Source of the DNA: Candidatus Aminicenantales bacterium
GTDB taxonomy: Bacteria; Acidobacteriota; Aminicenantia; Aminicenantales; UBA4085
Reading direction: 5' to 3'
Assembly (NCBI GenBank): GCA_049515535.1
Contig: JBEKTZ010000006.1
Span: forward strand, 1-64,000
DNA: 64,000 nt
A model generated the notes under the pieces. It made no database searches and had not been told where the DNA came from. It saw nothing but the letters and a program-made list of their open reading frames with translations. Of this stretch, positions 830 to 60,516 are shown piece by piece; positions within the stretch are counted from its first letter, which is position 1; each line of letters begins with the position of its first letter. Position numbers and translations under genes: made by a program.

Positions 830-980
830 GGCAAGTCGTCTCGATGAAGAGCGGCGCCAGGGCCTGATTATTGATTTCTGGACTTTGTTTCAGAACACGA
901 TGGGCAAGTCGTCTCGGGGAAAACAGAGAGCGGCGCTGGCGGGCTGAATATCGATTTTCATTTTCGAAAGGATTTTTCAG
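830..980 (+). repeat. Family A repeat, tandem (one full and one partial unit)
   Basis: GGCAAGTCGTC...GCGGCGCC..CTGATTATTGATTTCTGGACTTTGTTTCAGAACACGATGGGCAAGTCGTC...GCGGCGCTGGCGGGCTGAATATCGATTT. Confidence 0.9.
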
Positions 981-993
981 CCTCTTCCATTTC

Positions 994-2298
994 TTAACGT
1001 ATGATACTGCCGATCCCAGGTCCTGGTGGCTGCTGTTGCGTCGTCTGCTGCGTCTTGATCTGCGGGATTGGCAGTCCGATGACGACGTTGTCGCCTTCCT
1101 TCAGCTCGCCGCTCACCACCTCCTTCACCTCGGTGTAGCTCTTGTCAGCCACGCCCAGGCGGAGGGTGATTTGGCTCAGCGAACCGTCGGGATTCTGCTT
1201 CCAGACACGGCCAACGCTTTGACTCGCCTGGTCTGACTGGCCTGCGTCTTGCACCCTCGTACCTCTCGCCTTTTGCGGCGGAGACGCCTCGCTCGAAGTC
1301 GACTGTTGCACTTGCGTCTGCTGCGCGGCACCGGCTGCCTGATTAGACGGAATGAACCTGAGGGCTGAGTTCGGGACTCGAAGCACGTTATCAGCAGAAG
1401 CGGTGATGATGCTCGCAGTGGCCGTCATTCCAGGCCTGAGCTTCAGTGAAGGATTGTCCACGTCCACGATACAGGTGTAAGTGACGACGTTCTGCACCAC
1501 CGTGGCAGAAGACCTCACCTGCGTGAGTGAGCCCGCGAATTTTTCTCCTGGAAAAGCCGAGACTGTGAAGTTGACCTTCTGGCCTTCCGCCACCTTGCCG
1601 ATATCGGCTTCGTTAACGCTGCACTCAATCCTCATCTTGGATAAATTGTTCGCGATGGTGAAAAGCACGGGCGCTTGGAGGCTTGCCGCCACAGTCTGAC
1701 CGATGTTCATATTCCTGCTGATGACGACTCCATCGATGGGCGAGCGGATGGTGCAGTGGCCAAGATCGACTTTGCTTGCATCGAGCTGAGCCTTGGCTTG
1801 GCTCAGCTTGGACTCCGAAGTCTTTACGTTTGATAAGGCTGTCGAATAAGTCACCGTCGAAGTCTCTTTCTCCTCGACCGAAATTATGTTCTTTCCGAAC
1901 AGGTCCAGTGCCCGGTCGTTTTTCTTTTTCGCGTCTTCCGCGGCGACCTTGGCGTTGTCCACGCTTGTCTGTGCGCTTTCATAATTCGCTTGGTCCTGGC
2001 CGACCTGGGCTAGGAAATCAGAATTGTCCAGTTCGGCGAGCACCTGGTTGGCTTTTACAATTTGGTTGAAATCTACGTAGAGAGCTGATATCCGGCCTGA
2101 GACCTGGCTGCCGACTTCCACCAGAATGTAAGGGGTGAGCGTTCCTGACGCCGTGATGCTGGCTTCCACGTTTCCCTTCTTTATGGCCTCGGTGCGGTAT
2201 TGTGCGGCAACGCTTATCCGGCCGGGCTTTATGACGAAGAAGAATACGATGGCCGCCACGAGGATCAGCGCTGCCCCTCCGATTAAGAACTTCTTCAT
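994..2298 (-). CDS. Efflux membrane-fusion protein (MacA/HlyD-like)
   Basis: N-terminal TM, ASGTL.P...VEVGSQVSGRI, IRSPIDGVVISRN, LRPGMTA. Confidence 0.9.
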   Translation of the reverse strand: MKKFLIGGAALILVAAIVFFFVIKPGRISVAAQYRTEAIKKGNVEASITASGTLTPYILVEVGSQVSGRISALYVDFNQIVKANQVLAELDNSDFLAQVGQDQANYESAQTSVDNAKVAAEDAKKKNDRALDLFGKNIISVEEKETSTVTYSTALSNVKTSESKLSQAKAQLDASKVDLGHCTIRSPIDGVVISRNMNIGQTVAASLQAPVLFTIANNLSKMRIECSVNEADIGKVAEGQKVNFTVSAFPGEKFAGSLTQVRSSATVVQNVVTYTCIVDVDNPSLKLRPGMTATASIITASADNVLRVPNSALRFIPSNQAAGAAQQTQVQQSTSSEASPPQKARGTRVQDAGQSDQASQSVGRVWKQNPDGSLSQITLRLGVADKSYTEVKEVVSGELKEGDNVVIGLPIPQIKTQQTTQQQPPGPGIGSIIR

Positions 2299-2398
2299 GT
2301 TACCTCCTGTTGAATTACGAGATATGCTTGTTTTACATGAATGCGGGCTTGGCGATGGGATTAGGATTCATTGGACGCCGTGGCATGTTCCTGCGCCT

Positions 2399-3082
2399 TC
2401 ATCTCTGATTTCGCTCAGACCTGGTCTTTGCCTTCTCTTGAGCTTTGATCACGTCTTTTTTGAAGAACGCCCTGGCTTCAGCCAATTTTTTCTCTGCGAT
2501 CTCCAATCCTTGCTTGATGAGAGCCTCAGCCTTTTCTCCATTCTGAAGATACTCTCTCTTGCTCGTATCCCGGATTGCGTAATCCTGGAATAGCGACAGA
2601 TGTGGCGATGATTGCTCGACAGCCTTATCGGGAGCTTTCGGAGTTGCCGGAGGAGGAAGCGGCATGGGCGGGTGAGCAGGAGGCCGTGGTCCGCGTCGCA
2701 TCCTTGGGAGTGGAGGATGCCTTTTGTCGATGTGATACTTGATGCCGCCCAGCTCGAGGACCAGGCGCTGGACTCCGCCGAGGTTTTTGTCGTACTGCAC
2801 AAAGAAATCCAGGTTGGCCTCTGACTCGATGAACGGGTTGTTGAACAGGTAGAGACGCTCCTCTGACTCCATGGGGTGGAAGCTTTTGGCGTAGATCTGC
2901 TTGCTGAAGCTGAACAAGCTGGCCTTGTGCAGCCGAACCCACATGCCGGGACGATAATCGGCGTGTACGCGCGTGAACCATAGGTAGCCGGCGCAGAGTA
3001 CGATGATCACAACCGCCACTGTCGCGATCGCTTTGCCCTTTGGCTTCTTGCTGCCGATTGGACGAATAGAGCTATCTGTCAT
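2399..3082 (-). CDS. Hypothetical membrane-anchored protein inside the ABC exporter operon
   Basis: ATG at 3082 with an upstream AAGGGAG; one TM, Pro-rich linker, charged C-terminal helix. Confidence 0.65.
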   Translation of the reverse strand: MTDSSIRPIGSKKPKGKAIATVAVVIIVLCAGYLWFTRVHADYRPGMWVRLHKASLFSFSKQIYAKSFHPMESEERLYLFNNPFIESEANLDFFVQYDKNLGGVQRLVLELGGIKYHIDKRHPPLPRMRRGPRPPAHPPMPLPPPATPKAPDKAVEQSSPHLSLFQDYAIRDTSKREYLQNGEKAEALIKQGLEIAEKKLAEARAFFKKDVIKAQEKAKTRSERNQR

Positions 3083-3116
3083 GATGCACTCCCTTATATT
3101 CCTCGCATTTTTTTGC

Positions 3117-5080: not shown

Positions 5081-5250
5081 GGTTTTCTCCGGTGGTGAAT
5101 AAGACTGTTTTCAATTTCGTTTAAAGGAAAAGCCATCATAAAATCTCTTCGATCGCCAAATCGATAAAGAGGAAGATTTTTACTACAATAGCTAGAACTC
5201 ATTATAAGACGTTTCTCCAGAAAGTTCTATCGGGATGTACCAGTGAACCC

Positions 5251-5370
5251 GATCCAATCCCGGGCAAGTCGTCGGGGGGGAAGATAGAGAGTTGCGCTAG
5301 CGGCTGAATATGGATTTCTGGACGGGGTTACAGAACATCCCTGGGCAAGGAGGCGAAGAAAAAAAAGGAA
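5251..5370 (+). repeat. Family A repeat
   Basis: CCCGGGCAAGTCGTCG...GCGGCTGAATATGGATTTCTGGACGGGGTTACAGAACATCCCTGGGCAAGG. Confidence 0.9.
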
Positions 5371-7500: not shown

Positions 7501-7597
7501 GGAGAAGAAGAGCGGCGCCGGCGGCTGGGTATCGATTTCTTGATGTTATTTCAGGACACCCAGGATAAGGAGGAGAGGGGGGAACAGGAGGGAGGGC
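7501..7597 (+). repeat. Family A repeat
   Basis: GCGGCGCCGGCGGCTGGGTATCGATTTCTTGATGTTATTTCAGGACACCCAGGATAAG followed by a G/A tract. Confidence 0.9.
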
Positions 7598-7680
7598 GAC
7601 TATGAGGATAAAGAGGGAGTTGAACCGATTGGCTATACTCGAATCCTTGCCAAACGGTGTCAGCTGAATTACCATGAGAG

Positions 7681-11219: not shown

Positions 11220-11299
11220 CTAAGCAAGTCCATTTTTAACCGCCTCATAATCTCGATCGTGAAGGAGGCAGTCGGCCACGGCGACTGTTAAGGGAATAT

Positions 11300-11381
11300 G
11301 AGACACAATACCCATTTCCCAATTTTCGGGAGTGGTCGGATAGGAGTAGGCAGTATCAGGGAATCAGGTATTGTGGCTCCC
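11300..11381 (+). repeat. Family B hairpin repeat, copy 1
   Basis: GAGACACAATAC...TTCGGGAGTG...GTATTGTGGCTCC. Confidence 0.85.
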
Positions 11382-11524
11382 TATTAAATTTATTCGTCGG
11401 AGGCCAAGACCTTCACATGCTCCGTCGTCTCTTCCAATGAAGGAGGTTTCGAGATTTTAAATCAATACAAGATAAATAGTAAAAATATCTTGTATTATTT
11501 ATAAACGTCATGTAAATTGGAGGT

Positions 11525-15004: not shown

Positions 15005-15100
15005 TCGTCGATCTCGAGCCGGCGGCTGGATAAAGATTTCTGGACGGGGTTTGAGAACATATCGGGCAAGTCGGAGAGGGAGGGGGAAAGAGGGGGAGAG
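15005..15100 (+). repeat. Family A repeat
   Basis: GCCGGCGGCTGGATAAAGATTTCTGGACGGGGTTTGAGAACATATCGGGCAAGTCGGAGAGGG. Confidence 0.9.
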
Positions 15101-15133: not shown

Positions 15134-15162
15134 TGAGCCACACCTGATTGAAGGGGTCAGGA

Positions 15163-17663: not shown

Positions 17664-17800
17664 GATCAACATCCTGGGCAAGTCGTCGAGGATAAAAGAG
17701 AGCGGCGCCGGCGGATGAAGATCGAATTATAAAGGTGGTTTCAGAACATCCCGGGCAAAGAGAAGAGGAGGGAGGGGGAAGGGAGCTGCAGGAAGAGGAG
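17664..17800 (+). repeat. Family A repeat
   Basis: GATCAACATCCTGGGCAAGTCGTCGAGG...GCGGCGCCGGCGGATGAAGATCGAATTATAAAGGTGGTTTCAGAACATCCCGGGCAAAG. Confidence 0.9.
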
Positions 17801-19358: not shown

Positions 19359-19410
19359 AACGATTAACATTTTTGGCAAGTCGTCGAGGGTGAGCGGCGG
19401 AGAGACGGAG
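19359..19410 (+). repeat. Family A half copy
   Basis: AACGATTAACATTTTTGGCAAGTCGTCGAGGG..GCGGCGG. Confidence 0.75.
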
Positions 19411-21072: not shown

Positions 21073-21110
21073 GATTTCAAAACCGCTTTGGCAAGTCGAA
21101 GAGGGGGAAG
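21073..21110 (+). repeat. Family A half copy
   Basis: ATTTCAAAACCGCTTTGGCAAGTCGAAGAGGGGG. Confidence 0.65.
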
Positions 21111-21128
21111 AATGAAAGTGCCGAGCGG

Positions 21129-29934: not shown

Positions 29935-31230
29935 TTACAGGACGAGAGGAGAAGCGAAGGCGTCCGCCTTGAGCTTGAGTTTTTTCTTGATTTCGTCCAG
30001 AAAACCGGGGTCGACCGCGACCCCCAGGGCCCGGGCTTTTTGGATATGGTCCCAGGCCTTCTCGTAGGCGCCTTTGCCAAAGTACAGGACGGCGATGTAG
30101 TTGTGAAGCGTCCCGTCGTCAGGATCGAGGGCGGCGGCCCTAAGGAAAAACTCGAGGGCCTCGTCGACCGCCGAGTCGAACATGTTTTTTAGGAGGTACG
30201 CGTAACTTAGGTTGAGGTGGGTTGCCGCGGAGACGAGTCCGAGCTTCTGGGAAAGCAGGATCTCCGCGATCCCCGCATCGGTCTTCCCGCTCTTGAGCAA
30301 GCAGTAGCCGAGGCTCGCATGTGCTTCGGCGAATCCGGGGCGGAGCTCGATGGCTTTCGAAAAGAGGCCCGAGGCCTCCGGGATGAGGCCCTCCTCGAAG
30401 CGGCAGATCCCGAGATTGTAATAGGCCTTTTCGTAGCCGGAGTCGAGCTCGATGGCCCGCGCATATTCCGCGAGGGCCTCCTTGACAAGGCCCTGGTGAT
30501 GAAGGAGATTCCCGCGGACGTTGTGAGGTCCGGGCAGGTCCGGATTGAGCCGGAGAGCGAGTGTGACTTCCGCGAGGGATTTTTCGAACTCCTTTTTCCT
30601 GACATAAACCTCGGCCAAGTTGGAATGGGCGAGGGCAAACGAGGAGTTGAGGGCGATCGCCCTAAGAAAGGCCGATTCCGCATCGCCAAGCCGGCCCGAC
30701 CGCAGGCCGAGCTCGCCGATGTTGTTGTACGCCTCGGCGAAGTTGGGCTTGATCTGGACGGACCGGCGGTAGCAGTCCAGTGCCCCATCGGCGTCGCCGG
30801 TCCTGGCCAAGGCTATCCCCATGTTGTATAGAAACCGGGCGGATTTAGGCCTGGCCTCGAGGATCTTCCGGTAGATTTGGATCGCGTCGTCGACCCGGCC
30901 CTGTCTTCTCAAGATGATTCCCTCGAGGTTCCTTGTCTCCAGGTTCTCCGGGTTGAGTTTCTGAGCGGCCCGGCAGGCGGCCATGGCCTCCTCGTATTCT
31001 TTCTCCTCCAGGTGGATCTGGGCTAAAAGGAAGTGAGCGTCGTCGAGAAAAAAGGATTCCTCCCGTCTTTTCTCTCCGACCAAACCCTGGATCTCGTAAG
31101 CGAACGGCGCCGAACATGTGGCCCATTCATGCTTCAGGATCTGTTGGAGGCCTACGGTATCGCCGGTGAACAGGCCAGGCTTTCTTTAAGCTTGCGAATG
31201 CTATGGCTATCTTCCAGTAACAAAAAAGCT
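29935..31230 (-). pseudogene. Degraded paralog of the metalloprotease-TPR gene at 54887-56944
   Basis: TPR part aligns with the paralog (LDDAHFLLAQI vs LDDAYVLLAQI) but lacks about two TPRs; an upstream frameshifted KHE/MGHMFGAV remnant of the HExGH motif lies at about 31100-31135. Confidence 0.75.
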
Positions 31231-31231
31231 A

Positions 31232-31313
31232 GGGCAAGTCGTTGAGGGTAAACGGGGAAGCGGAGCCGGCGGCTGATTAATGATTCTTAGAGGTGGGTTC
31301 AGAGCCTTCGGGC
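31232..31313 (+). repeat. Family A repeat
   Basis: GGGCAAGTCGTTGAGGG...GCGGAGCCGGCGGCTGATTAATGATTCTTAGAGGTGGGTTCAG. Confidence 0.85.
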
Positions 31314-31449
31314 TCCACGTATGAAAGCCGATCCAGAGCCAGGAGCGGCCGAATCATGGATTTGCCCACCCGCTCGGACTCCGCTTTGGTCTTCGCCGCA
31401 CCCGCGGATCAGGGACCGGAGAGCATAGCGGTCCCCGGGTGTTCCCGCG

Positions 31450-37506: not shown

Positions 37507-37715
37507 GATGATCAACATCTTTGGCAAGTCGTCGATGGGGAAAAAGGCGCCGTCGGCTGATTATTGATTTCTGGATATAATTTTAGAACATCCCGGTCAA
37601 GTCGTCTCGGGGAAAAGGAGAGCGGTGCCGGCGGATGAATATTGATTTCTGGATTTAATTCCAGGACACAAAAGGCAAGGAGGAGGAGGGAAAGGGGGGA
37701 AAAGATAGCGGCGCG
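37507..37715 (+). repeat. Family A repeat, tandem of two units
   Basis: Two cores (CTGATTATTGATTTCTGGATATAATTTTAG; ATGAATATTGATTTCTGGATTTAATTCCAG), each bracketed by CAAG boxes. Confidence 0.92.
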
Positions 37716-38397: not shown

Positions 38398-38625
38398 GCA
38401 AAGGAGGGAGAAAGGCGCCAGTGAATGGTTATCGATTTCTGGATATAATTTCTTGACACTCCAGAGCAAGGAGGGGGGAGCGGCGCCGGCGGCTGAATAT
38501 CAATTTTTCTGATGTGGTTTCAGAATGTTCTGGGCAAGGAGGAGAGGGCAAGGGGCGGCGCAGGCGGCTGATTGTCGACTTATGGATTTTATTTCAGAAC
38601 ATCCCGGGCAATGAGGAGGGGGAAG
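38398..38625 (+). repeat. Family A repeat, tandem of three units
   Basis: Three successive cores with a period of roughly 70-75 bp. Confidence 0.92.
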
Positions 38626-38640
38626 ACGAATAAAGGTCGA

Positions 38641-41563: not shown

Positions 41564-41723
41564 GTCCAGACTTGGAGATGCTAACGATTATTCCTCTTTC
41601 ATTTTTTTCTCTTGATACCGAACTATCTCAATCTTCCCTGAACTCTGGAGCTCATTAAGGACAAGCCAAGCCTTCCCTTAGCAAAGAATCGCCATGGCCA
41701 TCGTTATTAGCAAGAAAAAGCAA

Positions 41724-41866
41724 GGGCAAGTCGTCGCGGGCGGCTGATTTTTGATTTGTAAAGCTTGTTTCAGAACATTTTTGGGCAAGGAGGAGAGGGG
41801 GAGGGGGAGGAAAATAATCGGGGATAAGAAGGGCGGAGTGGGAGTGGTGGGAAGAGGGGCAAGTCC
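41724..41866 (+). repeat. Family A repeat
   Basis: GGGCAAGTCGTCGCGGGCGGCTGATTTTTGATTTGTAAAGCTTGTTTCAGAACATTTTTGGGCAAGG followed by a G-tract. Confidence 0.9.
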
Positions 41867-41878
41867 AGGCGGATCTCG

Positions 41879-42054: not shown

Positions 42055-42145
42055 GACGATGATCAACCATCCCGGGCAAGGCGTCGAGGAAGAGGAAGAG
42101 AGCGGCGCCGGGGGAAGGAAAAGGGAAAGACGGAAGGCAGAAGAG
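42055..42145 (+). repeat. Family A half copy
   Basis: GACGATGATCAACCATCCCGGGCAAGGCGTCGAGG...GCGGCGCCGG; the core is missing. Confidence 0.85.
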
Positions 42146-42916: not shown

Positions 42917-43050
42917 GACGATCTACATCCCGGAAAGTCGGGGAGGGGAGGAATGGTTGGAGGGAGGCGCAGGCGGCTGATTATCGATTTCTGGATATAA
43001 TCTCAGGACACGCAGGGCAAGGAGGGGGATGGGGAAAAGGGGAAGGCGGA
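42917..43050 (+). repeat. Family A repeat
   Basis: GACGATCTACATCCCGGAAAGTCG...GGCGCAGGCGGCTGATTATCGATTTCTGGATATAATCTCAGGACACGCAGGGCAAGG. Confidence 0.9.
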
Positions 43051-45642: not shown

Positions 45643-45780
45643 AACGAGGATCACCATCCCGGGCAAGTCGTCGAGGCGGGAAAAGCGGCGCCGGCGGCTG
45701 AATATGGATTTATGAATATAATTTCAGAACACCCAGGGTAAGGAGGAGGGGGGAAAAGGGGGCTAATGAGGGTGGGCGAA
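45643..45780 (+). repeat. Family A repeat (closest to consensus)
   Basis: AACGAGGATCACCATCCCGGGCAAGTCGTCGAGG..GCGGCGCCGGCGGCTGAATATGGATTTATGAATATAATTTCAGAACACCCAGGGTAAG. Confidence 0.92.
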
Positions 45781-48515: not shown

Positions 48516-49193
48516 ATGTCCGTATTCGGAGATCACCCAATGAAAACAAGTGAAATGGCTGAACTTATTAAAGGTCGACGTTCTATTCGCAGTTGGCTCG
48601 AAAAGCCTGTTAATGAGGACATGTTGCTCCAGGCCATAGAGCTGGCGACATGGGCGCCCAACGGAGGCAATCAGCAAAACTGGCTCTTCTATGTCATCCT
48701 GAATAAGAACGTCATCAACTCGATCGCTGACGCGGTCCAAGCTCGCGCCGATTATATTGCCTCTCTGCCCGAGGCGAGTCAGATAGGAGAAAATCTCACT
48801 CGTATGCTTAAGCGATCGGACTTCTTTCGAAATGCACCTTCGGTTATCGCGGTTGCCGCCTCCCCGTACAAATCACTGCTGGATCCGATTTTGGCTGCTC
48901 GGGAAAAGGTTGACCCGAAGGTTCAACAGATGAACCGATGGAGGAGCGTGGCCGATACCCGAATCCAGTCTGTCTCGTCTGCTATCGCCTATCTCCTTCT
49001 GGTCCTGCATCAAATGGGTTTGGGGGCTGTCTGGATGACCGGCCCGATGCAAGCCAAGGGTGATATCGAAAAGATTCTGAAAGTGCCGGAGGAGATGGAT
49101 TTCGTGGCTTTAATTCCGGTGGGCTACCCGGCAGAAAATCCCGCTCCAAGGGAAAGAAAGCCGGTCAAGGATGTAATTCAGATCATAAAATAA
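48516..49193 (+). CDS. Nitroreductase family protein
   Basis: IKGRRSIR, WAPNGGNQQNW, GLGAVW, IPVGYP. Confidence 0.9.
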   Translation: MSVFGDHPMKTSEMAELIKGRRSIRSWLEKPVNEDMLLQAIELATWAPNGGNQQNWLFYVILNKNVINSIADAVQARADYIASLPEASQIGENLTRMLKRSDFFRNAPSVIAVAASPYKSLLDPILAAREKVDPKVQQMNRWRSVADTRIQSVSSAIAYLLLVLHQMGLGAVWMTGPMQAKGDIEKILKVPEEMDFVALIPVGYPAENPAPRERKPVKDVIQIIK

Positions 49194-49305
49194 GCTAACA
49201 GCTAATCGGACTGGATTGAGAGTTCCCTTGACCCAGGCCCGATGCCACGGACTTTCCTTTGATGATTGTATGTGAGAATTGCTTTTTCATTTCCTCTCGC
49301 GCTTC

Positions 49306-49360
49306 AACGATCAACATCAAGTCGGAGAGCGGAAGGGGGAAGGAGGGGAAAGAGCAGGGA
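49306..49360 (+). repeat. Family A half copy
   Basis: AACGATCAACATCAAGTCGGAGAG followed by a G/A tract. Confidence 0.7.
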
Positions 49361-49395
49361 CTTAGCCGGGAACCTGAAGGGAAGGCGGCAGGAAT

Positions 49396-49467
49396 GAGAT
49401 CTCCGAGACGTGGGTGCGAGCAAGCCTCCTGGCGATGAATCTGAAGACGGCGCTGAAAAGAGCATGA
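49396..49467 (+). pseudogene. Possible IS5-like transposase C-terminal fragment
   Basis: EISETWVRASLLAMNLKTALKRA*. Confidence 0.35.
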
Positions 49468-49540
49468 GAAAGTCGCTCGATCGCGGGCAAATAAGGTAAA
49501 ATGAAGATGCGAATGAGAAGGAGCGATCAGGAGACCATAA

Positions 49541-51019
49541 TTAAATTCTCACGGTTTTTCGGAAATGGAATCCATAAATGGCAAATGATATGGCTAAACC
49601 CAGAAAGCGGGGACGTCTTATCAGTGTCCAGGAAATGATTTTCCAGTAATGAAATCTTCCTTTTCCTTTTATCCCCAAAAACCAGATAGATTTGAAGAAG
49701 GCTTTGAAGTAACAAAATTTAAAATGGATTTTTTTCCTTAACTGTTTTGGTTTATATTCTTTAAAGAATGTTATCACCCGTTTATAATAGTCTCTAGGGG
49801 AATAAATCGTATTGAGGATTTTCTTATACCCAGTCATGAGTGCTTCAGCATTCATTTTTGGGATGAAGTTGAGGGAAAAGTCGGTGTTATCACCAGATGG
49901 ATCATCCAATAATCTTTTTTCTTTTTTTAGACGGTGAAAAAGCCTTGTCCCCGGAGGTGCATTTAACAACCCAACCATAGCCGTAACAATTCCGCTCTTT
50001 TGGATAAAACTTATCTGACTTTCAAAGATAGAAAGAGGATCATTATCAAAACCTACGATAAATCCCCCCTGAACTTCTAGGCCGATGTCTTGAATTTTTT
50101 TTACACAAGCTATCAAGTTACGATTCTTATTCAGGTATTTATTGCATTCTGTGAGGCTCTCTTCATTCGGCGTTTCAATCCCGATAAAAACTCTTGTAAA
50201 CCCAGCCTCGACCATTAATTGCATCAGCTTCTCGTCATCAGAAAGATTGATAGATGCTTCCGTGAAAAGAGAAAAAGGATATTTTTTCTGTTTCATCCAA
50301 TTGATGAGCCCGGGAAGAATTTCTGTTTTCAGTCTTTTCGTATTACCTATAAAATTATCATCGACAAAGAACACCCCGCCTCTCCAGCCTTGTTCGTATA
50401 AAGCTTCCAGTTCCCCCAAAATCTGGCCTTTACTCTTTGTCCGGGGTTTATGACCGTTGAGAACGATGATGTCACAGAATTCACAATTAAAGGGACAGCC
50501 CCTGGAATATTGAATGCACATGGAAGCATATTTTTTCATGTTAATGAGGTCCCACTGTGGACAGGGAGTCTCTCCTAAATCAGGCCACTCTTTAGAAGTA
50601 TACATGTGCTGGGCGCATCCATTTTTTACATCATTCAGAAAAGATGGAAGCGTACTCTCAGCCTCATTAAGAACGAAATGATCTATGTCCTCAAATGCTA
50701 CATATCCGGTGGTAAAAAGAGGGCCACCGGCAACAACTTTAATTCCTAATTTATTGCATCTTTTTATTACTTCAATGGCTGAGGTTTTCTGAACGACCAT
50801 AGCGCTGATAAATACATAGTCCGCCCATTCGAGGTCTTCCTCGGTTAAAGCAGAGACGTTCAGGTCAATAAGTTTTTTCTCCCATTCTTTGGGGAGCATG
50901 GAAGCCACTGTTAATAAGCCCAAAGGCGGGAAAGATGCTTTTTTTGAGATGAATTTCAAAGCATGCTTAAAACTCCAGAATGTGTCTGGATACTTTGGAT
51001 AAATCAAAAGTATTTTCAT
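49541..51019 (-). CDS. B12-binding radical SAM protein (DUF4070)
   Basis: PPLGLLTVA, SRGCPFNCEFCD (CxxxCxxC), FVDDNF, GIETP; visibly AT-rich. Confidence 0.93.
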   Translation of the reverse strand: MKILLIYPKYPDTFWSFKHALKFISKKASFPPLGLLTVASMLPKEWEKKLIDLNVSALTEEDLEWADYVFISAMVVQKTSAIEVIKRCNKLGIKVVAGGPLFTTGYVAFEDIDHFVLNEAESTLPSFLNDVKNGCAQHMYTSKEWPDLGETPCPQWDLINMKKYASMCIQYSRGCPFNCEFCDIIVLNGHKPRTKSKGQILGELEALYEQGWRGGVFFVDDNFIGNTKRLKTEILPGLINWMKQKKYPFSLFTEASINLSDDEKLMQLMVEAGFTRVFIGIETPNEESLTECNKYLNKNRNLIACVKKIQDIGLEVQGGFIVGFDNDPLSIFESQISFIQKSGIVTAMVGLLNAPPGTRLFHRLKKEKRLLDDPSGDNTDFSLNFIPKMNAEALMTGYKKILNTIYSPRDYYKRVITFFKEYKPKQLRKKIHFKFCYFKAFFKSIWFLGIKGKGRFHYWKIISWTLIRRPRFLGLAISFAIYGFHFRKTVRI

Positions 51020-51246
51020 TGTCCTAAGTCATACTTTTAAGGAAATGAAGTTGCCCCCATTGTTTGGACAGTCGAGAAACCTTCGGAAGGTACACTGAAG
51101 ACCTGCTTGTCGTTATTATTTTATTCCATTGTGAGCCCCAAATGCCATTTTTTCGTCACAGCCCCGTACAAACTGCTTCACCATTTGGCTTACAAACGAC
51201 GATCTCGAGCCGATCCATATTAAACCATTGCCATCCTCTCGCTCTT

Positions 51247-51316
51247 GATGATCACCCGGGCACGTCGGAGAGGGGGAGGGGAAAGGCGGGGAAGGAGGGA
51301 GGGCAGAAGGAGGGCG
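51247..51316 (+). repeat. Family A half copy
   Basis: GATGATCACCCGGGCACGTCGGAGAGGGGG...GAGGGCG. Confidence 0.7.
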
Positions 51317-51424
51317 AATTAGGAGCGGTGGGATCGCTTCTTCAGTTAGTCGAAGGGCCGATAGCCAACAGTTAGGAGATTGGGATATAAAATTAGGAGC
51401 GTGAAAAGTCCGCCGAGTGGGATG

Positions 51425-52135
51425 TCAGCTTCTGTGTTTATTTAGCTTGCCCCTATGGATTTTTGGCGATGCGAGCATTTCCGTGATCCGGTCCTGAAGA
51501 GCTGTCCTTATTCTTTCCTTTTCTGAGGAGAATGGACATTCGGGATTAAAGGAGACCGACGGGGCGATATGGATGGCCTTGGTATCTTGATCGACGGCGA
51601 CAGGGATGAATTTCAAGATCCCGCCGGTTTTCTTGTAATACGTTAGAGCCAACCCGATGAAACCATCGTCGAATTCGTTCAAAACATCGTTTAAGGGCAG
51701 ATGGCCGATCTCTGGGAAAATGATCAGGCATTTATTTCGAGCCAATAACGCGAGGCTTCGTTTCCAGGTCGAAGCGAGTCTCATGCTCCTTTCATAAACG
51801 GGAATGGCGTGCAAAGATTTAATGACGGCGACACAAACCTTCGAAATCACCCAAGCCGCGAGGCTGCTCAAGGGCGGCCTTAGCCGAAGCTCGGGTTCTA
51901 CGAAATCCATTCGCAAATAGCCGGGACATAGCTTCCTGTCCGTGATCTGATAGGCTACCCAGGGATATAGCCGGACGGGAAAAGCGGAGAGCACGGCGAC
52001 CGGCGCATAAGAACCCAGGTGATTCGATACAAATACCGCAGGGCCATGGAGTGGGATGTTTTCCTTTTCCACCAGGCGACAATGCCAAAAACAGTAAAAA
52101 AACGACCTCATTCGTTCGTAGAAATAATTGTTCAT
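51425..52135 (-). CDS. PlsC-like acyltransferase family protein
   Basis: AVFVSNH, IPVY, LIIFPE. Confidence 0.75.
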   Translation of the reverse strand: MNNYFYERMRSFFYCFWHCRLVEKENIPLHGPAVFVSNHLGSYAPVAVLSAFPVRLYPWVAYQITDRKLCPGYLRMDFVEPELRLRPPLSSLAAWVISKVCVAVIKSLHAIPVYERSMRLASTWKRSLALLARNKCLIIFPEIGHLPLNDVLNEFDDGFIGLALTYYKKTGGILKFIPVAVDQDTKAIHIAPSVSFNPECPFSSEKERIRTALQDRITEMLASPKIHRGKLNKHRS

Positions 52136-52223
52136 CGCTTTAACCGGAGCTTCATATCATAAAACGAGTTCTTCGTTGACCGAGCAATCGTCCATGTTTA
52201 TACTATCGCGCGTTCTGTTGGCA

Positions 52224-52360
52224 ATCAATATCAAGGGCAAGTCGTCGCGAGAAAAAACGGCGCTGGCGGCTGAATATTGATTTTTAGAAATGGTTTCAAA
52301 ACATCCTAAGCAAGTCGGAGAGGGGAAGAACGAGGAAAGGTCAAAGCGGAAGGGAGGGCG
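52224..52360 (+). repeat. Family A repeat
   Basis: GGGCAAGTCGTCG...GGCGCTGGCGGCTGAATATTGATTTTTAGAAATGGTTTCAAAACATCCTAAGCAAGTCGGAGAGGGG. Confidence 0.9.
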
Positions 52361-52471
52361 GAATTTTCGATACTTGAAACTATTTAGATCAGGGGGAGAA
52401 ATTAGCCGGCTGTGATATAAAAGCGAGAAACTTGTCGTCTTGCGTCGCGATGCCGTCTTAGAGATCTTGAA

Positions 52472-52786
52472 TCAAAAGAATGCCGCCCGCTTCAACGCTT
52501 CCTGAGAGATCCTGTTGCCCGGGCCATCGCCCCTGGAGACACAGACAGCGACCTTATTTTCAGTGGCCGCGACGATCTCAGCGATGTCCTTGTGGCTGAA
52601 TCCTGGACAGAGCAGGATGGACTCGATCTTTTTTTCTCTGAACAAGCGCGTGCTGACCTCTAAGGCTTCAGCCTGATTTTTGACGATGACCACGTCTAGC
52701 TGATATTTACCAGTGTCGATGAAGCAGCGATGTTTCTCTTTGTCCGCGTCTGGAGCATGGGCGAGAAAGAGTGCTTTAAAAGCCAT
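52472..52786 (-). CDS. DUF6506-like small protein
   Basis: ILLCPGF, VCVSRGDGP. Confidence 0.7.
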   Translation of the reverse strand: MAFKALFLAHAPDADKEKHRCFIDTGKYQLDVVIVKNQAEALEVSTRLFREKKIESILLCPGFSHKDIAEIVAATENKVAVCVSRGDGPGNRISQEALKRAAFF

Positions 52787-52862
52787 GATTTTATCCTCCC
52801 ATGTTGATATTGTCTGAAATGAACTATTTTTTCAATACGAATATAAAATTGGATATAAAATC

Positions 52863-52930
52863 GGAGACACAATACTCATTTCCGGGAGTGCTGGGGTGGG
52901 CAGAATTAGGAAATTAGGTATTGTGTCTCC
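52863..52930 (+). repeat. Family B hairpin repeat (complete)
   Basis: Perfect 13-bp terminal IR with internal TTCCGGGAGTGCTGGGG. Confidence 0.92.
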
Positions 52931-52998
52931 CAATTAAATTTTGTTCTCATGAATACCACTTTGCGTGATTTTGATTTCTTGACAGGAACCATGGCAGG

Positions 52999-54848
52999 GT
53001 GATATGTTCTGGCTTCATCAAGAGGAGAGAAGGGTTGGCTCTCTTGGTAACAGAGCAAGCGTTTCAAAATAAAAAATTTCCCTGCTCTCTGGTCCTGGTA
53101 TTCTTCATCATTTGCGCTGCCATGGTGACGGCTTGCGGCGCCCCGGAACCGGAGAAGCTCTTTTCCCGCACCGGGCATCGCTGGTATGAGGACCCGGGGA
53201 ACATGAGCTTGATCTCGCCGGATGGCCGTTGGGTCCTGTTCAGCTGGTACGACGGCAAGCCGGAACTATTCTCCCTGGCCACCGGGAAGGAGGACCCGGC
53301 GCGCCTCCAAGGTAACCTGCAGAGGATCTGGAATGCGAAATTCTGGGGCGCTCAAGGGGAGCTGATCAGACTGGGTTCGATGAAGGATGAATCCGGCTGG
53401 TTCGTCCCTGCCAAGGGCAAGGGACTCGAACGGGTTTCCGTGCCGCCCCGCGCCTTCCCCGTGGGCTCCGACGATCCTGCCGTAGCAGCCTTTTTCTTTC
53501 CGGAGAATCCTGATGGAGGCCTTTCTGTCGGAGACTTGAAGAATCCCAGGAAGATCGTAATCCCCGGCGCCATCACGGGCACCGCCTTTGCTTCGGGCGC
53601 GAAGACCCTTTTCGTCATAGCGCGCCAGCCCGATGGCGGCTCGACGCTGTTCAAGGTGGATGCCCGTTCGGGCACGATGGAGATCCTGCGGCGGGATCTC
53701 GACGCCGATCCGTACTGGCACCCCATTTCCCTTTCCTCCGACGGCAAGCGACTCTACCTTGCCCTCGTCGGGCCGAAAGCCCCGAACGTAGCCGAGCGCC
53801 AGCAGCCAGACGCACCCCGTTGGATGGACATTTACGCCTTCGAATTGGCCACAGGCCGCCTCTCCTTGCTCGTCCACACCCCTCATGACAAGCGTGCTCC
53901 CATCGAAGCCGGCGGCTACTTGTATTGGGCCCAAGTCGCGGGCGGAGACGGTATCGTGGCCTTGCCTGCTAATGGCGGCCCTGCCCACGAAGTCGCCGCG
54001 GCTGGGGAAGTGCCGGAGTGGGGACCGGGCGGCCGGCGGATCGGCTTTGCCTTCGGAGCCTGGCGCCAAGCCGACTGGGGCCTCAATCTTGACGCGGGCG
54101 CCGTGATGGTGGACGGGGAAGCCCGCCCGACATCCGGGCGGGAAGCGGTGATCTCCGGAAATCACGAGGACTTCCCGCCCGTGTGGTCCCCCGATGGGAG
54201 ATGGATCGCCTTCCATTCCCACCGCGCGCCCCACCCCGTGGCCTACTACGATGCTGACGGCTCCGCGGACGACATCTGGATCCGCTGCGCCGACGATCCC
54301 AGTGCCCCTGAGATCCGCCTCACCGACTTCGGTTGGGAAGTGGGTTCCCCCAACTGGGCGCCCGACGGCTCCTTTACAGCTCCTGGGACAAGGGAAAGCC
54401 CAATATCGATCACCTCTGGGTCACCACGGTCGATCCCGGCACCGGCCGAGCCGTGAGCCACAAGAAACTCGACGTACCCGCGGTGATCGTGAATCCACAA
54501 TGGGCCGTCTGGTCGCCGGACGGTCAGGAAATTGCCATGACCGATCACACTGCTCCCGGCGAGTGCACCCTTCGGGTTCTCCATGGAACCACCCTCGAGA
54601 GCCTTGTCGCCTACAAGACCGACACCATGGGCGGTTTGGACTACATGCCCGACGGGATGACCATCGTCTACAGCGCACTCGATGATGGGCGAATGCAGAT
54701 CTTCTCTATTCCGCGCTCCGGCGGCACTCCGAGGAAGCTGAGCGACGAGACGGCGAACTTGCTTCACCCGCGAGTCTCCCCGGACGGCCGCTGGATCGCC
54801 TGTACGCGGATGGAGATCCGCCACGAAATCTGGCGAAAAAAGCTCTAG
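52999..54848 (+). pseudogene. TolB/PD40-repeat protein split by a frameshift at about 54369
   Basis: WSPDG-type repeats in two overlapping frames (52999..54456 and 54333..54848); the junction reads NWAPDG|LLYS. Confidence 0.7.
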
Positions 54849-54886
54849 GCGAGGACTCGCCCGAAGCCCCCGCCCTGTGATCCTCA

Positions 54887-56944
54887 ATGCGAGAAACGAG
54901 CGCTTTCATTAGATTTCCGATGATGCGCGCGTCGCTCAAAATGGGCTCTATTCGTTTAGCGATCATTCTCATTTTCTCTTTCTTCCTGGCAAAGATACCC
55001 CTTTTTCCGGAATCAAGAGAAATCACCTGCAAAATACTGGCTGACGAGGAACTCCGCCAGGATCCGGGCTGGAAAGCGAAGATTGAGAACTGTGTGAATC
55101 TAGCGGCTTCTGAATTTGAGACGCTCTTTGGAATTCATTTCTCCATAAGGACATGGGATGATTGGAACTCTCCGGATGTCATGAATTCGCTGGAGGGGCT
55201 GGCCGAAGTCCTTAATTCTCGATTGAACAAGGAGGATGTTGATGTCTTGATAGCTATCACAGCCCAAAACAACTTAGCCGATAGTCCCTCGGGCTACTCT
55301 CTTTTAAAAGAGGGAATCATCCTCTTGAGATACACGGAAAATACGCATGCCTTGGCCAGGACCCTAAAACACGAACTCGGTCATCTTTTTGGCGCCGTCC
55401 ATGTGGCTGACTCCGATTCAATAATGGATCGTTTCGTTCGGGGAGACAAATTTGATTCCCTTAATCAGAAGGCGATTCACTTAAGCAGGGAAAGGCTTTT
55501 CAATACGATCGACTTTCCTCTGCCCAAGAAGAACTGGCCCAAACTGATTGAGCTCTACGAAGAAAACTGTCGGGCCATCAAAATATCTCAGATGCGGGAA
55601 AAAATGAGGAAAGAGATCGAGCCTGGAATCGAGGAAGTGGCCGGTGAAAATGGACGTCGAGATCCCCAGGACCTCGATGATGCCTATGTCTTGCTAGCCC
55701 AGATCTACCTCGAATATAAACAATATGATAAGACGATGGAACGATGCCAAGCCGCGCTAAGAATCAACGCCGAAAATCTCGAGACCCAAAACCTCATAGG
55801 AATTGCCCTCCGAAGAAAAGGCCTTATTGAACAAGCCATAGAGAAATACCAGGAAATCTTAAAACTCCGGCCCCGCAATCCGGAAATCCTTTATAATCTA
55901 GGGATCGCGTACGCCAAAAAAGGCGACCTTGGAGATGCTCTTTCGGCCGATGGGAAAGCCATTGAACTGAAGCCAAACTTCGCCGAAGCCCACAACAATC
56001 TGGGTGAGGTCTTTCTCAGATTGGGCAAATTGGAAGAGGCCGAGAACGAGTTTTTGAAGGCCATTTCTTTATGTTTTCAATTTCCCCTCGCCCATTCCAA
56101 CCTCGCCGAAGTCTATGTCCGTAAAAAAGATTACCAGAGATCTTTCGCCGAAATCGAAAAGGCTATCGCTATGAACCCCGACTTGCCCGATCCCCATAAC
56201 ATCACCGGTAATATCTATCACCAGCAGGGAAAGACCGAAGAAGCCGTCAAAGAATACCTCCAGGCTTTAGTCCTAGAGCCAGATTATGATAAGGCCTATT
56301 TTAATCTGGGGGTTATTTGTCTTGAGCGGGATCGAATCGACGAAGCCCAAAAGGATTTTCTGACGGCCATTGAAATCAATAAGAACTTGGCGGAGGCTCA
56401 CGCCAGCCTCGGATACTGCTTTCTCCAAAAAAAGCGAGTCGATGAGGCTATTTCAGAAATTATTATTGCCCAAAAACTCGGGTTCCATCCGGCCAAGACA
56501 TATCTTAACCTCAGCTTCGCCTACCTTCAAAAGGGCATGGCCGATCAGGCTATGGCGGAGGCCGAGAGAGCGATCGCGCTCGATTCGAGATTGGCTATGG
56601 CTTACAACAATCTAGGGATAGCCTTGACGAAAAAGGGAATGATCGAAGAAGCGATCGGACAGTTTAAAAAGGCGATCGAAGTCGATCCGAAATGTAAAGA
56701 AGCTTTCTTCAATCTGGGCAACCTCTATTTTCAGGCCGGAAAAATCGAGGAATCCCTGGAATTCTATGAAAAAACCGCCGGGCTTGATCCGAAGGATGGG
56801 GCTCTTTGTAACAATATTGCCGTAATCTATTTCCGGCTGGGCGAATACAGCCGGTCATGGGAATACGTGAAGAAAGCGGAATCCGTCGGCTTTAAAGTCC
56901 ATCCCGATTTTTTGGCTGAGCTGAAGAAGAGACTTAAATTCTGA
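54887..56944 (+). CDS. Secreted zinc metalloprotease (HExGHxxGxxH)-TPR protein
   Basis: HELGHLFGAVH...SIM Met-turn followed by many TPRs. Confidence 0.88.
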   Translation: MRETSAFIRFPMMRASLKMGSIRLAIILIFSFFLAKIPLFPESREITCKILADEELRQDPGWKAKIENCVNLAASEFETLFGIHFSIRTWDDWNSPDVMNSLEGLAEVLNSRLNKEDVDVLIAITAQNNLADSPSGYSLLKEGIILLRYTENTHALARTLKHELGHLFGAVHVADSDSIMDRFVRGDKFDSLNQKAIHLSRERLFNTIDFPLPKKNWPKLIELYEENCRAIKISQMREKMRKEIEPGIEEVAGENGRRDPQDLDDAYVLLAQIYLEYKQYDKTMERCQAALRINAENLETQNLIGIALRRKGLIEQAIEKYQEILKLRPRNPEILYNLGIAYAKKGDLGDALSADGKAIELKPNFAEAHNNLGEVFLRLGKLEEAENEFLKAISLCFQFPLAHSNLAEVYVRKKDYQRSFAEIEKAIAMNPDLPDPHNITGNIYHQQGKTEEAVKEYLQALVLEPDYDKAYFNLGVICLERDRIDEAQKDFLTAIEINKNLAEAHASLGYCFLQKKRVDEAISEIIIAQKLGFHPAKTYLNLSFAYLQKGMADQAMAEAERAIALDSRLAMAYNNLGIALTKKGMIEEAIGQFKKAIEVDPKCKEAFFNLGNLYFQAGKIEESLEFYEKTAGLDPKDGALCNNIAVIYFRLGEYSRSWEYVKKAESVGFKVHPDFLAELKKRLKF

Positions 56945-59168: not shown

Positions 59169-59197
59169 ATTATAAAAGGGATCCTTCATCAAGTCAA
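59169..59197 (-). promoter_or_regulatory. Sigma70 promoter for nfeD-slipin
   Basis: TTGACT-17 bp-TATAAT, 9 nt before the GTG. Confidence 0.7.
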
Positions 59198-59321
59198 TCT
59201 CGAAATTGATGGAAGATTTGAAATCCCCGCGTCCTGACAAAGAAAAAAAAATTCACTTTTTCGTCATCCCGCATGGAAATCTCGTCGGAGATAATCCATC
59301 CTCCATATTTATGGAAGTTGT

Positions 59322-59708
59322 TCATTTGCCCTCGGACAGCTTTTTCAAGTGTTCTTGGATGTCGGATAAAGTCGCCTGAATCTGTTTCATTCTCAAGGTT
59401 CTTGATCTCGTGGAAAGGACAAAGGTCATAGAAACGGCGATGATGAGCAAGGCTTGAACGCCGATCATCGGGATGACGATCCACAGCTCTTTACGGAATC
59501 CCCCGACGGCGCCAATGATCCCGGTAGCGACGAATGAGGCTGCCAATAAAAACCAGCTCACCACCGCGGCGCGTTTCAGCCGCCTGAGGCGGGCTGTATC
59601 TTTGGCGATGATTGCCTGAATCGAATTTTGATCGCCGTTCGGCGGAGCACCGTGATTTTTGTCCATTTGTTTGAGAAGTTCCTCTTTCAAATTATTTTGC
59701 TTTTCCAT
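59322..59708 (-). CDS. Two-TM protein, probable anti-sigma partner
   Basis: Overlaps the ECF sigma stop codon; two hydrophobic segments. Confidence 0.7.
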   Translation of the reverse strand: MEKQNNLKEELLKQMDKNHGAPPNGDQNSIQAIIAKDTARLRRLKRAAVVSWFLLAASFVATGIIGAVGGFRKELWIVIPMIGVQALLIIAVSMTFVLSTRSRTLRMKQIQATLSDIQEHLKKLSEGK

Positions 59709-60243
59709 GGCTTTCCTCCATTTTTCTTTTCAGAGCAAGTTTCGCGTAATAAATTCTTGATTTGACGGTGTTCAAGTTGCATTCCACCACGTTCGCGATC
59801 TGCTGGTAGGACATTTGTTCCAGAAAGCGCAGAACCAGGACCTCTTTATGCTCCGGGTGCAGTTTTTTCAGACACTCGTGGATTTGAGCCGCATCCGCGG
59901 GCGAAAAAGCGCTTTCCTGTGTCTCGTCCGGAACGGCGGTATTATCATCGAGCTCGAGGAACGGTTTTTTTCTCCTGAAGTGCTGATAAACCGTGTTGCG
60001 AGCAATCCGGTAGAGCCAGGCGGGGAACGTCTCGAGGTTCCTGAGGGTGCTTATTTTCCCGATCACGCTGACCCAGGTATCCTGAAAGAGATCATCGACT
60101 ATTTCGGCATTGTCCGACAGATGGCCGATAAAATAGCGCAAGGGTCGATGATACAAGCCGATAAGCTCCGCCAAAGCATCCTTGTCTCCAATCTGGCAGC
60201 GCAGGATCAGGACGCGTTCTAGGAGTTGTTTGGCGGGTTTCAT
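59692..60243 (-). CDS. ECF sigma-70 factor
   Basis: DDLFQDTW, WLYRIARN, SYQQIA...NTVKSRIYYAK. Confidence 0.92.
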   Translation of the reverse strand: MKPAKQLLERVLILRCQIGDKDALAELIGLYHRPLRYFIGHLSDNAEIVDDLFQDTWVSVIGKISTLRNLETFPAWLYRIARNTVYQHFRRKKPFLELDDNTAVPDETQESAFSPADAAQIHECLKKLHPEHKEVLVLRFLEQMSYQQIANVVECNLNTVKSRIYYAKLALKRKMEESHGKAK

Positions 60244-60324
60244 TAGTGTTCCTCAATATTTAAAGATGCATAATGGGATAAAAAGTTCAAGTCGAAGGAC
60301 AGGATTTTTATCGCTATGTTCTAT

Positions 60325-60516
60325 TGATTATCGAATTTATGGTATTGGTTTCAGAATATCCCGGGCAAGGCGGAGAGGGTGGAGGGGAGAAAAAGGAAGC
60401 GGCGCCGGCGGCTGATTATCAATTTCTTGATGTAATTTCAGGACACCCAGGGCAAGGCGGAGAGGGGAGAGGGGCAAGAGGGAGGGCGATGGAGGGGCGG
60501 CAGGAATGGGGAGAGG
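60325..60516 (+). repeat. Family A repeat, tandem of two units
   Basis: TGATTATCGAATTTATGGTATTGGTTTCAGAATATCCCGGGCAAG...GCGGCGCCGGCGGCTGATTATCAATTTCTTGATGTAATTTCAGGACACCCAGGGCAAG. Confidence 0.92.

Follow-up and report, generated by a model that had tools for sequence, protein, structure and literature searches.

Short, directly oriented repeats separate unrelated gene modules in the genome of a Candidatus Aminicenantales bacterium (Acidobacteriota), and one part of the repeat, the C box, is tentatively interpreted here as the recombination junction of a cassette-like system for shuffling accessory genes, the enzyme of which would be encoded elsewhere and would probably be guided by sequence. 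The stretch analysed, referred to as the window, comprises 64,000 nucleotides (assembly GCA_049515535.1, contig JBEKTZ010000006.1, positions 1 to 64,000, forward strand) and carries 18 repeat loci, or junctions, between positions 821 and 60516. The genome under study is denoted G000 and the contig of the window C6; other G numbers are relatives and most L numbers are metagenome loci. No description of this repeat family was found in the literature on integrons or repeats of the Aminicenantes (supplements were outside the search).

Structure and polarity of the repeat unit

The repeat unit is non-coding and consists of a C box and an S segment, together ~75 nt. The C box (26-30 nt) has the core AACATCCCGGGCAAG, followed by a TCGTCGAGGGG-like or an all-purine sequence, and the S segment (46 nt) begins with GCGGCGCCGGCGGCTGA and finishes with TTTCAG. 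A junction has the layout L-C-(S-C)n-purine tail, where L is a left motif and n is 0 to 3 in G000 and up to 7 in metagenome contigs (among the matches listed); solitary C boxes (n = 0) are found at 19366, 21081, 42066 and 51250. Two conserved left motifs precede the first C box of a locus, L1, which includes CCATCCTCTCGC and terminates in ACGATC, and L2, which includes CCATGGCCAT and terminates in AGCAAGAAAAGCAAGG. The last C box of a locus continues into the purine tail. As most arrays begin with L-C and finish with C and tail, the array ends do not lie at random repeat phases. Alignment of the flanks revealed a weak complementarity (CCTCTC/GAGAGG) of the L motif to the tail. Polarity of the units is strict, and their composition is strongly asymmetric in purines and pyrimidines.

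Allowing two mismatches, AACATCCCGGGCAAG matches the window eight times, always on the + strand (0.19 expected), and GCGGCGCCGGCGG with one mismatch allowed matches eleven times (0.32 expected), ten on the + strand and one, at 12480, on the - strand. Repeat finding placed 12-15 copies in register across 47-66 nt. A profile made from 15 copies was used to search the assembly contigs (nhmmer), and all 20 matches in the contig of the window are on the + strand. Position-weight matrix (PWM) scans resolve 17 loci; the eighteenth (49306) has a degenerate core and was read directly. A preceding sequence-only reading of the window had listed about 18 loci, all on the + strand, all intergenic and none inside an operon. 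All 18 were borne out, and the greedy open reading frame (ORF) map together with the Pfam annotation agrees that each is intergenic and that the units lie between transcription units.

A probable single array in one orientation

The 3.45-Mb assembly contains 60 profile matches, all in four places: 20 in C6:1-60.5 kb (all +), 24 along the whole 25-kb contig C19 (all +), 13 in C8:374-5836 (all -) and three in C3:243.9-247.7 kb (all +), where two strong units flank a tricorn-like protease gene. Elsewhere in the assembly, a fuzzy core search and weight matrices gave background only. In this genome-wide scan, which the sequence-only reading had suggested, orientation was uniform in every contig and there were no copies on random strands. 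This distribution (60 of 60 matches in four places, with one orientation per contig) is not that of a dispersed repeat of the miniature inverted-repeat transposable element (MITE) or BOX type.

The reversed C8 terminates with the N-terminus of a Ser/Thr kinase, and C19 starts in a TPR tail; C19 ends in an FMN-reductase gene interrupted by an insertion sequence (IS), and C6 starts with the end of the IS and the remainder of that gene. The split genes at the contig ends suggest the order C8 (reversed), C19, C6, and the three contigs are inferred to form one array of ~93 kb with ~35 junctions in a single orientation, in which C and S make up 3,382 of 91,416 bases. The array abuts an OLD-family nuclease gene at its left end and small ORFs without an assigned family at its right end.

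Both borders have further features. The contig break between C19 and C6 arises because the IS, the first ORF of which starts MKTGRPKK, splits the FMN-reductase gene (window 1-100 and the end of C19). The OLD-family nuclease gene (L003, G000:C8, 6066-7883) encodes an AAA_21/AAA_15 ATPase and an OLD-like TOPRIM domain and reads away from the first junction; beyond it on C8 there are ~8 kb of small ORFs without a Pfam family.

Occurrence in relatives and metagenomes

Relatives were scanned with a sequence-only covariance model. The unit is present in 18 of 60 related genomes, at 1-7 copies each, and these belong to families f1 (12/26), f3 (2/3), f4 (1/6) and f9 (3/6), with none in five further families. 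In a class-wide sample, seven of 150 other genomes have the unit. Copies from other families match the consensus at 85-90%, and within a contig the copies of the relatives are co-oriented and clustered a few kb apart.

A pattern scan of metagenomes gave at least 130 stretches, with 74 loci not from G000 among the matches listed, and there are at least 151 array loci in metagenome contigs, with a median spacing of 1.4 kb. The lineage is uncultured, and metagenomes that contain it are labelled peat, sediment and groundwater. Among the matches listed, all 57 non-G000 loci with more than one unit are co-oriented and none is mixed; the ORFs of at least 90 amino acids in the listed loci are co-oriented with the units in 233 cases and opposite in 210. 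The module content includes kinases, extracytoplasmic function (ECF) sigma operons, efflux pumps, peptidases, radical-SAM enzymes, nitroreductases and even AsnA and RsgA; roughly one module ORF in two, again among the matches listed, lacks a Pfam family.

The G-rich strand of the unit is the G-rich strand of the contig in G000, and local skew agrees at eight of ten loci in relatives. In the complete genome G013, for which skew was sampled, the G-rich strand is leading at 3/3 loci, and in the complete genome G047 one locus runs counter to the skew and another is ambiguous. So few independent loci do not tip the balance for or against an orientation set by replication, which the sequence-only reading had considered.

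Such agreement with skew as there is speaks for a BOX-like selfish modular repeat, in which L-C-(S-C)n-tail would be non-autonomous, mobilised in trans and oriented by replication, with the modules as bystanders, an alternative that we regard as unlikely. Its modular build, in which the two ends are defined and the middle varies, resembles boxA-(boxB)n-boxC (PMC3049150), and HUH transposase genes are present in G000 outside the array (Y1 in two places and Y2 in six). A selfish repeat sits poorly with the distribution of the unit, ~57 copies in one ~93-kb region, three at a single further locus and none across the other ~3.3 Mb, and with the G047 locus that runs against the skew. No terminal inverted repeats (TIRs), target-site duplications or folds were found at the units in aligned flanks and fold predictions, and no match to the unit was found in plasmids or viral contigs. 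An origin of the unit from IS91/ISCR ends was rejected, since the Y2 elements in the genome have flanks without similarity to it, which also counts against mobilisation of this kind.

Horizontal exchange of the modules

The modules are self-contained genes or operons (up to four genes) in either orientation. Unit positions and Pfam annotation support the earlier claim that directly oriented sites bound unrelated, self-contained modules, and GC content varies between modules (0.45-0.65 per 2 kb), as had been noticed from the sequence. Several modules have promoters of their own, a TTGAC-N17-TATAAT-like sequence just past the purine tail (by eye), also as proposed. The toxin-antitoxin pairs that had been reported could not be recovered, Pfam giving only a DUF2204 nucleotidyltransferase and GNAT.

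Nearly all gene blocks of the window are matched, at 84-98% nucleotide identity, by a block from another genus or family, with a different genome for each, against a baseline of 63-80% to the same genomes for 20 kb of this contig lying beyond the array (with one 6.4-kb exception at 87%). Counterparts are found for macAB-HlyD in G002 (93%); the BNR protein in G013 (93%) and, in another family, G043 (92%); PCMT in G010 (91%); the M28 peptidase in G024 (92%); the kinase in G008 (89%); the TPP enzyme in G034 and G047 (another family; 86%); OEP-MFS-HlyD-MarR in G018 (87%) and L066 (94.9%); the second M28 in G010 (89%); the histidine kinase in G008 (92%); the 601-aa protein in relatives (87-90%) and L072 (98.4%); DUF2284 in G013 (92%); the nitroreductase in G013 (96%); the second kinase in G013 (84%); the radical-SAM protein in G018 (88%); and DUF6506 in G008 (91%). 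These identities indicate that the modules are horizontally exchanged.

The neighbours of the modules change from genome to genome. Units lie on both sides of DUF2284 in G000, G013 and L051, with a different left neighbour in all three, and the module is followed directly by the nitroreductase in G013 and by two more unit-bounded modules before the nitroreductase in G000. In G000 as in G018 the radical-SAM gene has a unit on either side and is antisense to them, and the DUF6506 module is also unit-flanked in other genomes. Beyond its units the 601-aa module has other modules in L072, and the junction 10 locus to its left has three units in G000 and six in L072. The efflux operon is bounded by units on both sides in L066; in G000 the common sequence halts inside the C box of L066, and a 5.6-kb block then reaches the next L2-C. 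For the eight shared blocks examined, 10 of 15 ends lie no more than 35 nt from a unit in one genome of the pair, and the variation in module order between relatives that the sequence-only reading had put forward as a test is thus present, with many breakpoints at the repeats.

Differences are also seen between populations. Contigs of four metagenome runs on 37000-56000 have small indels inside units, and one population (run X2, record 2) has an extra S-C at 42103 (junction 12). A joint from 43025 to 45775 (one run, side 61) omits the APC-amidohydrolase module; in that run a second contig reads through the complete module.

Several small differences and paralogues in the modules are recorded here. 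Upstream of the nitroreductase gene, the 25 bp at 48375-48399 are the exact reverse complement of the matching place in G013, which on sequence comparison is a small inversion between modules that are 96% identical. Just downstream of the same gene G013 is ~137 bases longer (window 49204-49206 against L031 1373-1511), probably another small repeat insertion. A ~105-nt element at 38972-39080 has a depth of 7775 in run X2, against ~100-180 around it, with many loose ends at both borders, and is taken to be an insertion in G000 because it is absent from the otherwise 98% identical L072; a similar element of ~106 nt is found at L047:1473-1579, and many copies at 95-97% in G008. Four paralogous Ser/Thr kinase-TPR genes occur in the array (window 15148-17547 and 45824-48352; L002 3870-6368 and 9141-12248), each preceded at 60-90 nt by a unit and each with a promoter of the TTGACG..GATAAT kind, and the family has dozens of paralogues in G013.

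Tandem runs of diverged units

In G000, neighbouring S copies have a mean identity of 0.643 (n = 14), compared with 0.655 for those separated by over 5 kb (n = 776; p 0.67 by permutation). For 291 units of G000 and metagenome contigs (among the matches listed), neighbours average 0.704 identity (n = 114), within-contig pairs 0.700 and between-contig pairs 0.707, and none of the 114 neighbour pairs is at or above 90%. Orthologous units in different genera are 85-92% identical, and unit number differs between near-identical populations. Since neighbours are no closer than random pairs and unit number changes, the runs do not come from slippage or unequal crossing-over; a slippage minisatellite was rejected on the same ground, adjacent units being no closer to each other than distant ones. 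Diverged units are brought side by side, and the arrays are formed by juxtaposition and not by duplication.

Mobile DNA in the units

An element of the IS110 family (DEDD transposase) is inserted at one position of the C box, ...ATCAAGG|GCAAG..., in all four copies examined outside G000, three of them in G013 (L022, L028 and L038) and one in L121. The element is ~1.3 kb long and its ends are identical in the four copies, the left beginning with TAGCATGATAGCG and the right finishing with CATCATAGAAGG. In G000 itself the IS110 copies are outside the array, and those of this subfamily are in other sequence and not in C. Close homologues (at least 79% identity) occur in seven of 61 genomes, six of which carry units (relatedness was not controlled). 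Elements of the IS1111 group are reported to reach integron attC sites or repetitive extragenic palindromic (REP) sequences through a guide RNA (PMC11187229), and IS110 elements use bridge RNAs (PMC11208160).

Fragments of IS91-like elements adjoin arrays in five metagenome loci (L083, L104, L108, L050 and L095). A TIR repeat family (GGAGACACAATAC ... GTATTGTGTCTCC) is present in the window at 11290-11386, 19831-19948, 20979-21069, 52854-52936 and 61372-61462. The copies at 19831 and 20979 bracket a 261-aa ORF (20103-20888) without a Pfam family, which is 86-92% identical in six other genomes. From its sequence, the TIR-bounded stretch 19831-21069, which borders an S remnant at 21069, has the appearance of a small mobile element inserted into a unit.

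The presence of mobile DNA in the units, whether IS110 copies, IS91-like fragments or the TIR-bounded element, is what would be seen if the units were a portable homology or landing pad with no enzyme of their own, a stretch of neutral DNA into which foreign genes come by IS activity or illegitimate joining; a module with units on both sides would then be exchanged between genomes by RecA through orthologous units, nothing would transpose and orientation would stay. Flanking units do travel at the identity of their module (the 92% block with the units at 42917-43050 and the 85% block with the S-C at 52255), block ends fall at varied unit positions (C start, C end and past the tail), and no recombinase was found, all of which would fit. 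Exchange by RecA would be inefficient between the units of one genome, which are ~65-70% identical over 46-75 nt and so too diverged and too short. Random landing also predicts ends at random phases, against the L-C starts and C-tail ends observed, and leaves the tandem runs of mutually diverged units unexplained. We consider this explanation rather improbable, though it deserves serious attention.

Classes tested on the unit

A coding unit was rejected, no frame having an excess of synonymous change and all six frames having stops, and the same frame test ruled out the in-frame INILGKSSR..SGAGG* tail as coding. RNAalifold on 39 units predicted three pairs and no consensus structure, DNA folds of three junctions on both strands were no better than shuffles (z -0.28 to +0.92), and Rfam gave no matches at the gathering threshold and none at E<=1 on 37400-38700. 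On these results a structured RNA, riboswitch, small RNA or folded single-stranded DNA was ruled out. The sequence-only reading had named a match to a known terminator, Rfam family or REP family as evidence that would speak against it; such matches were looked for and none was found. No sigma-70 promoter or intrinsic terminator coincides with the units (one terminator-like match lies in the variant at 41729), and sigma-54 or ECF spacing does not fit them (by eye). No tRNA or tmRNA attachment sites were found at the array. A CRISPR array was rejected on the layout of the repeats, as C and S are both conserved family members and the would-be spacers are S segments or whole genes. A REP/BIME (REPIN-RAYT) origin was rejected, as the unit is non-palindromic and never inverted and Y1_Tnp genes are only on C9 and C13, away from the array. 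G-quadruplexes were dismissed as a defining feature: five of the seven quadruplex motifs on the + strand of the window are in junction tails, and only five of the 18 junctions have one.

The localised, directly oriented array with accessory genes recalls a canonical chromosomal integron or a cluster of attC sites lacking integrases (CALIN), here with divergent attC sites. The sites are not attC, as the sequence-only reading had already maintained: neither strand forms a hairpin, Rfam gives no match, and no IntI is above cut-off (the IntegronFinder model was not run). A search with TIGR02249 gave nothing above the 265-bit cut-off and no IntI beside the array. Integrase-like fragments at 101-111 bits were seen at C4:3352-3769 (model positions 1-81 and 254-315, with the catalytic middle missing) and at C14:26310-26522; to judge by these matches, they may be the remains of a true integron elsewhere in the genome, and they are the second point on the side of an integron. 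The modules are multi-gene, bear promoters and face either way, which tells further against one, and with the three pairs in 39 units, the folds no better than shuffles and the empty Rfam search, an integron proper is extremely improbable.

A polar motif of the Chi or KOPS type was rejected, the strand share of the unit 8-mers outside the array being 0.35-0.67 (background sd 0.073). The same absence of any 8-mer with a genome-wide strand bias bears on the proposal that the units are polar binding sites for a chromosome-organising or fork-arrest protein, or one-way C-rich Rho-loading sites for leftward transcripts, which would insulate foreign modules. Units that are polar, unstructured, asymmetric in composition and placed between transcription units and not in operons are in keeping with such a role. 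Conservation of 75 nt at 85-90% between families exceeds what these functions need, relatives carry only 1-7 copies and the swapping of modules would be left unexplained, so that we hold a role of this kind to be quite improbable.

The C box as a proposed recombination junction

If the C box is the junction of a shuffling system, recombination between two directly oriented C boxes would excise or insert the intervening DNA and would keep all sites in one orientation. When a module leaves, S segments from neighbouring junctions would be joined in a tandem run, and modules entering side by side would leave solitary C boxes between them. Speaking for this reading are the confinement of the copies, their uniform orientation, the fixed array ends, the changes in unit number, the exchanged modules with their varying neighbours and either orientation, the block ends near units, the IS110 insertions at one position of C and, most tellingly, the unlike neighbours in tandem runs. 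A dedicated, sequence-guided recombinase encoded elsewhere is favoured, the C box being too short and lacking both dyad symmetry and a hairpin; one candidate would be an RNA-guided DEDD enzyme of the IS110 type, and RecA-dependent recombination is the rival. Of the readings considered we prefer this one, at somewhat less than even odds.

A further reading, possible and in our view somewhat doubtful, is a hairpin-free, integron-like capture system native to the Aminicenantes, with C as the attachment site, modules plus S as the cassettes and a distant sequence-guided recombinase. That recombinase could conceivably be a domesticated DEDD enzyme of the IS110 type, because an IS of that family already recognises the C box.

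Several observations weigh against a C-box junction. There is no recombinase in the window, and none recurs in or beside the arrays (no search was aimed at serine recombinases); tyrosine recombinases are present elsewhere in the genome and none recurs near the arrays. Clustering of 404 ORFs from metagenome loci (among the matches listed) gave no recurrent recombinase, and the sole strongly recurrent ORF family near arrays is that of the Ser/Thr kinase, numerous in these genomes in any case. In a search by eye for the arms of a site-specific recombination site, the only dyad seen in the C box was CCCGGG. The 75-bp S-C unit is too small to circularise alone. A TCGTC-type tail before S and an all-purine tail before a module is a tendency only: with a crude S detector, S comes next after 32 TCGTC-type C tails and not after 26, and after 11 all-purine tails and not after 28. 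The efflux-operon junction in G000 lacks the reciprocal half-core expected from a conservative C x C exchange. Away from any unit are five of the 15 shared-block ends, and the enrichment of breakpoints at units is modest against an intergenic baseline, because so much of the local intergenic DNA consists of units. In other genomes, most homologous modules (macAB, BNR, kinase, M28 and TPP) are without adjacent units, and module M3 has four genes with different best-match genomes and no unit between them. Finally, the metagenome joints 45684 to 52258, 49321 to 42962 and 41640 to 49318 have sides of 24-31 nt in de Bruijn contigs; such short-sided joints between units may be repeat artefacts and were not counted as rearrangements. 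Of the cassette-shuffling system proposed from the sequence, the part that held is that module order differs and breaks often at the repeats; an acting enzyme was not found in or beside the arrays, nor did a circular junction come to light.

The junctions of the window

All 18 junctions are on the + strand. Junction 1 (821..958) is a weak C followed by S-C and the start of a further S (nhmmer 850-920 and 929-958; PWM S-C 848-919). Junction 2 (5254..5358; profile, PWM and flank alignment) is C-S-C with a 1-nt insertion in the last C, and the region 5083-5349, its unit included, is 87% identical to G012:C32. Profile and PWM both support junction 3 (7509..7600), an S-C with purine tail upstream of the BNR/sortilin gene; junction 4 (15010..15100), an S-C with tail followed by the TTGACG..GATAAT promoter of the kinase gene itself; and junction 5 (17668..17790), a C-S-C with a long purine tail (DNA fold z = +0.92 and +0.82). 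The next three are supported by PWM. Junction 6 (19366..19397) is a solitary C after an L1 motif. Junction 7 (21073..21112) is the remnant of an S end and a C, with the TIR-bounded family-B element abutting its left side, and the homology to L066 begins at 21090, inside its C. Junction 8 (31224..31306) is L2-C-S, broken off after S by an IS91-like fragment: where the following C is expected, 31307..31396 on the - strand is a fragment of an IS91-family (Y2) transposase gene, detected by tblastn at 76.7% identity over 30 aa to the Y2 transposase of G000 itself.

Junctions 9 (37514..37700), C-S-C-S-C, 10 (38409..38630), S-S-C-S-C, and 11 (41716..41810), L2-C-S-C, were each found by profile and PWM, and junction 12 (42066..42114), a C with a truncated S start, by PWM. 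Junction 13 (42917..43050; profile, PWM and direct reading) is a degenerate C-S-C with tail carried with the DUF2284 module, and the 92% block common with G013 includes the units at 42917-43050 and stops at 43050. Junction 14 (45653..45776; profile and PWM) is L1-C-S-C with tail (DNA fold z = -0.18 and +0.16). Junction 15 (49306..49345), a degenerate solitary C with tail, was read directly, and the 95-96% block common with G013 stops in it at 49310. The solitary C and tail of junction 16 (51250..51299; PWM) contains the end, at 51278, of the 88% radical-SAM block common with G018. Junction 17 (52227..52335; profile and PWM) is C-S-C, and the block common with L091 (85%) begins at 52255, the border of C and S, and includes the S-C. 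Junction 18 (60325..60516; profile and PWM), the last of the array, is a partial S-C-S-C with a long purine tail.

Comparison with known systems

Insertion of a DEDD IS at a fixed position and in a fixed orientation in a multicopy site is shared with the IS110/IS1111 elements that target attC or REP (PMC11187229, PMC11208160). Here the target of the IS110 element is the C box, in place of the attC or REP of the IS1111 group. The REP, BIME and REPIN-RAYT systems (PMC2817692) also consist of abundant intergenic repeats in composite clusters with HUH transposases in the genome; REPs are palindromic and alternate in BIMEs, whereas the units here are non-palindromic and never inverted.

Integron arrays and CALIN (Cury et al. 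2016, PMC4889954) have localised direct sites between unrelated accessory genes, as here, and share with this array sites that are diverged within an array, site-specific IS in the sites and the possibility of arrays free of integrase. The array differs from integrons in having no attC hairpin, no R''(RYYYAAC)/R'(GTTRRRY) boxes and no IntI. Instead of the mostly single, promoterless, co-oriented ORFs of integrons it has promoter-bearing operons facing either way, and its sites form C-(S-C)n tandem runs. In architecture and behaviour the array is thus comparable to an integron, and in every structural feature of the class that was tested it is not.

BOX elements of Streptococcus pneumoniae occur genome-wide in both orientations and have stable RNA folds. 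They are likewise modular, intergenic and non-coding, with fixed ends and a variable number of a ~45-nt middle (PMC3049150). The array here is confined to one region and one orientation, without structure, and its middle modules are not recent duplicates. In pdif (XerC/D) modules of Acinetobacter plasmids the sites alternate in orientation and have dyad XerC/XerD arms, and tandem accretion of islands at tRNA att sites needs a tRNA gene and an integrase. Both resemble the present case in that short conserved sites bound exchangeable modules, and the array here has neither tRNA nor dyad.

Implications

To our knowledge, integrons, which require folded attC sites and IntI, are the only well-understood bacterial device for stacking and reshuffling single genes. 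On any reading the repeats of the Aminicenantes are unusual, in that among the matches listed hundreds of copies are present and none is inverted relative to the others on its contig; and even if they are portable homology or a selfish repeat, tandem units that are never recent duplicates are out of the ordinary. If the C box is a recombination junction, a second architecture, with direct unstructured sites, whole promoter-bearing modules facing either way and an array free of integrase, would add to the recognised modes of organising accessory genomes. It would also provide a defined site of 15-30 nt, together with IS110-type elements that target C, for work on programmable recombination.

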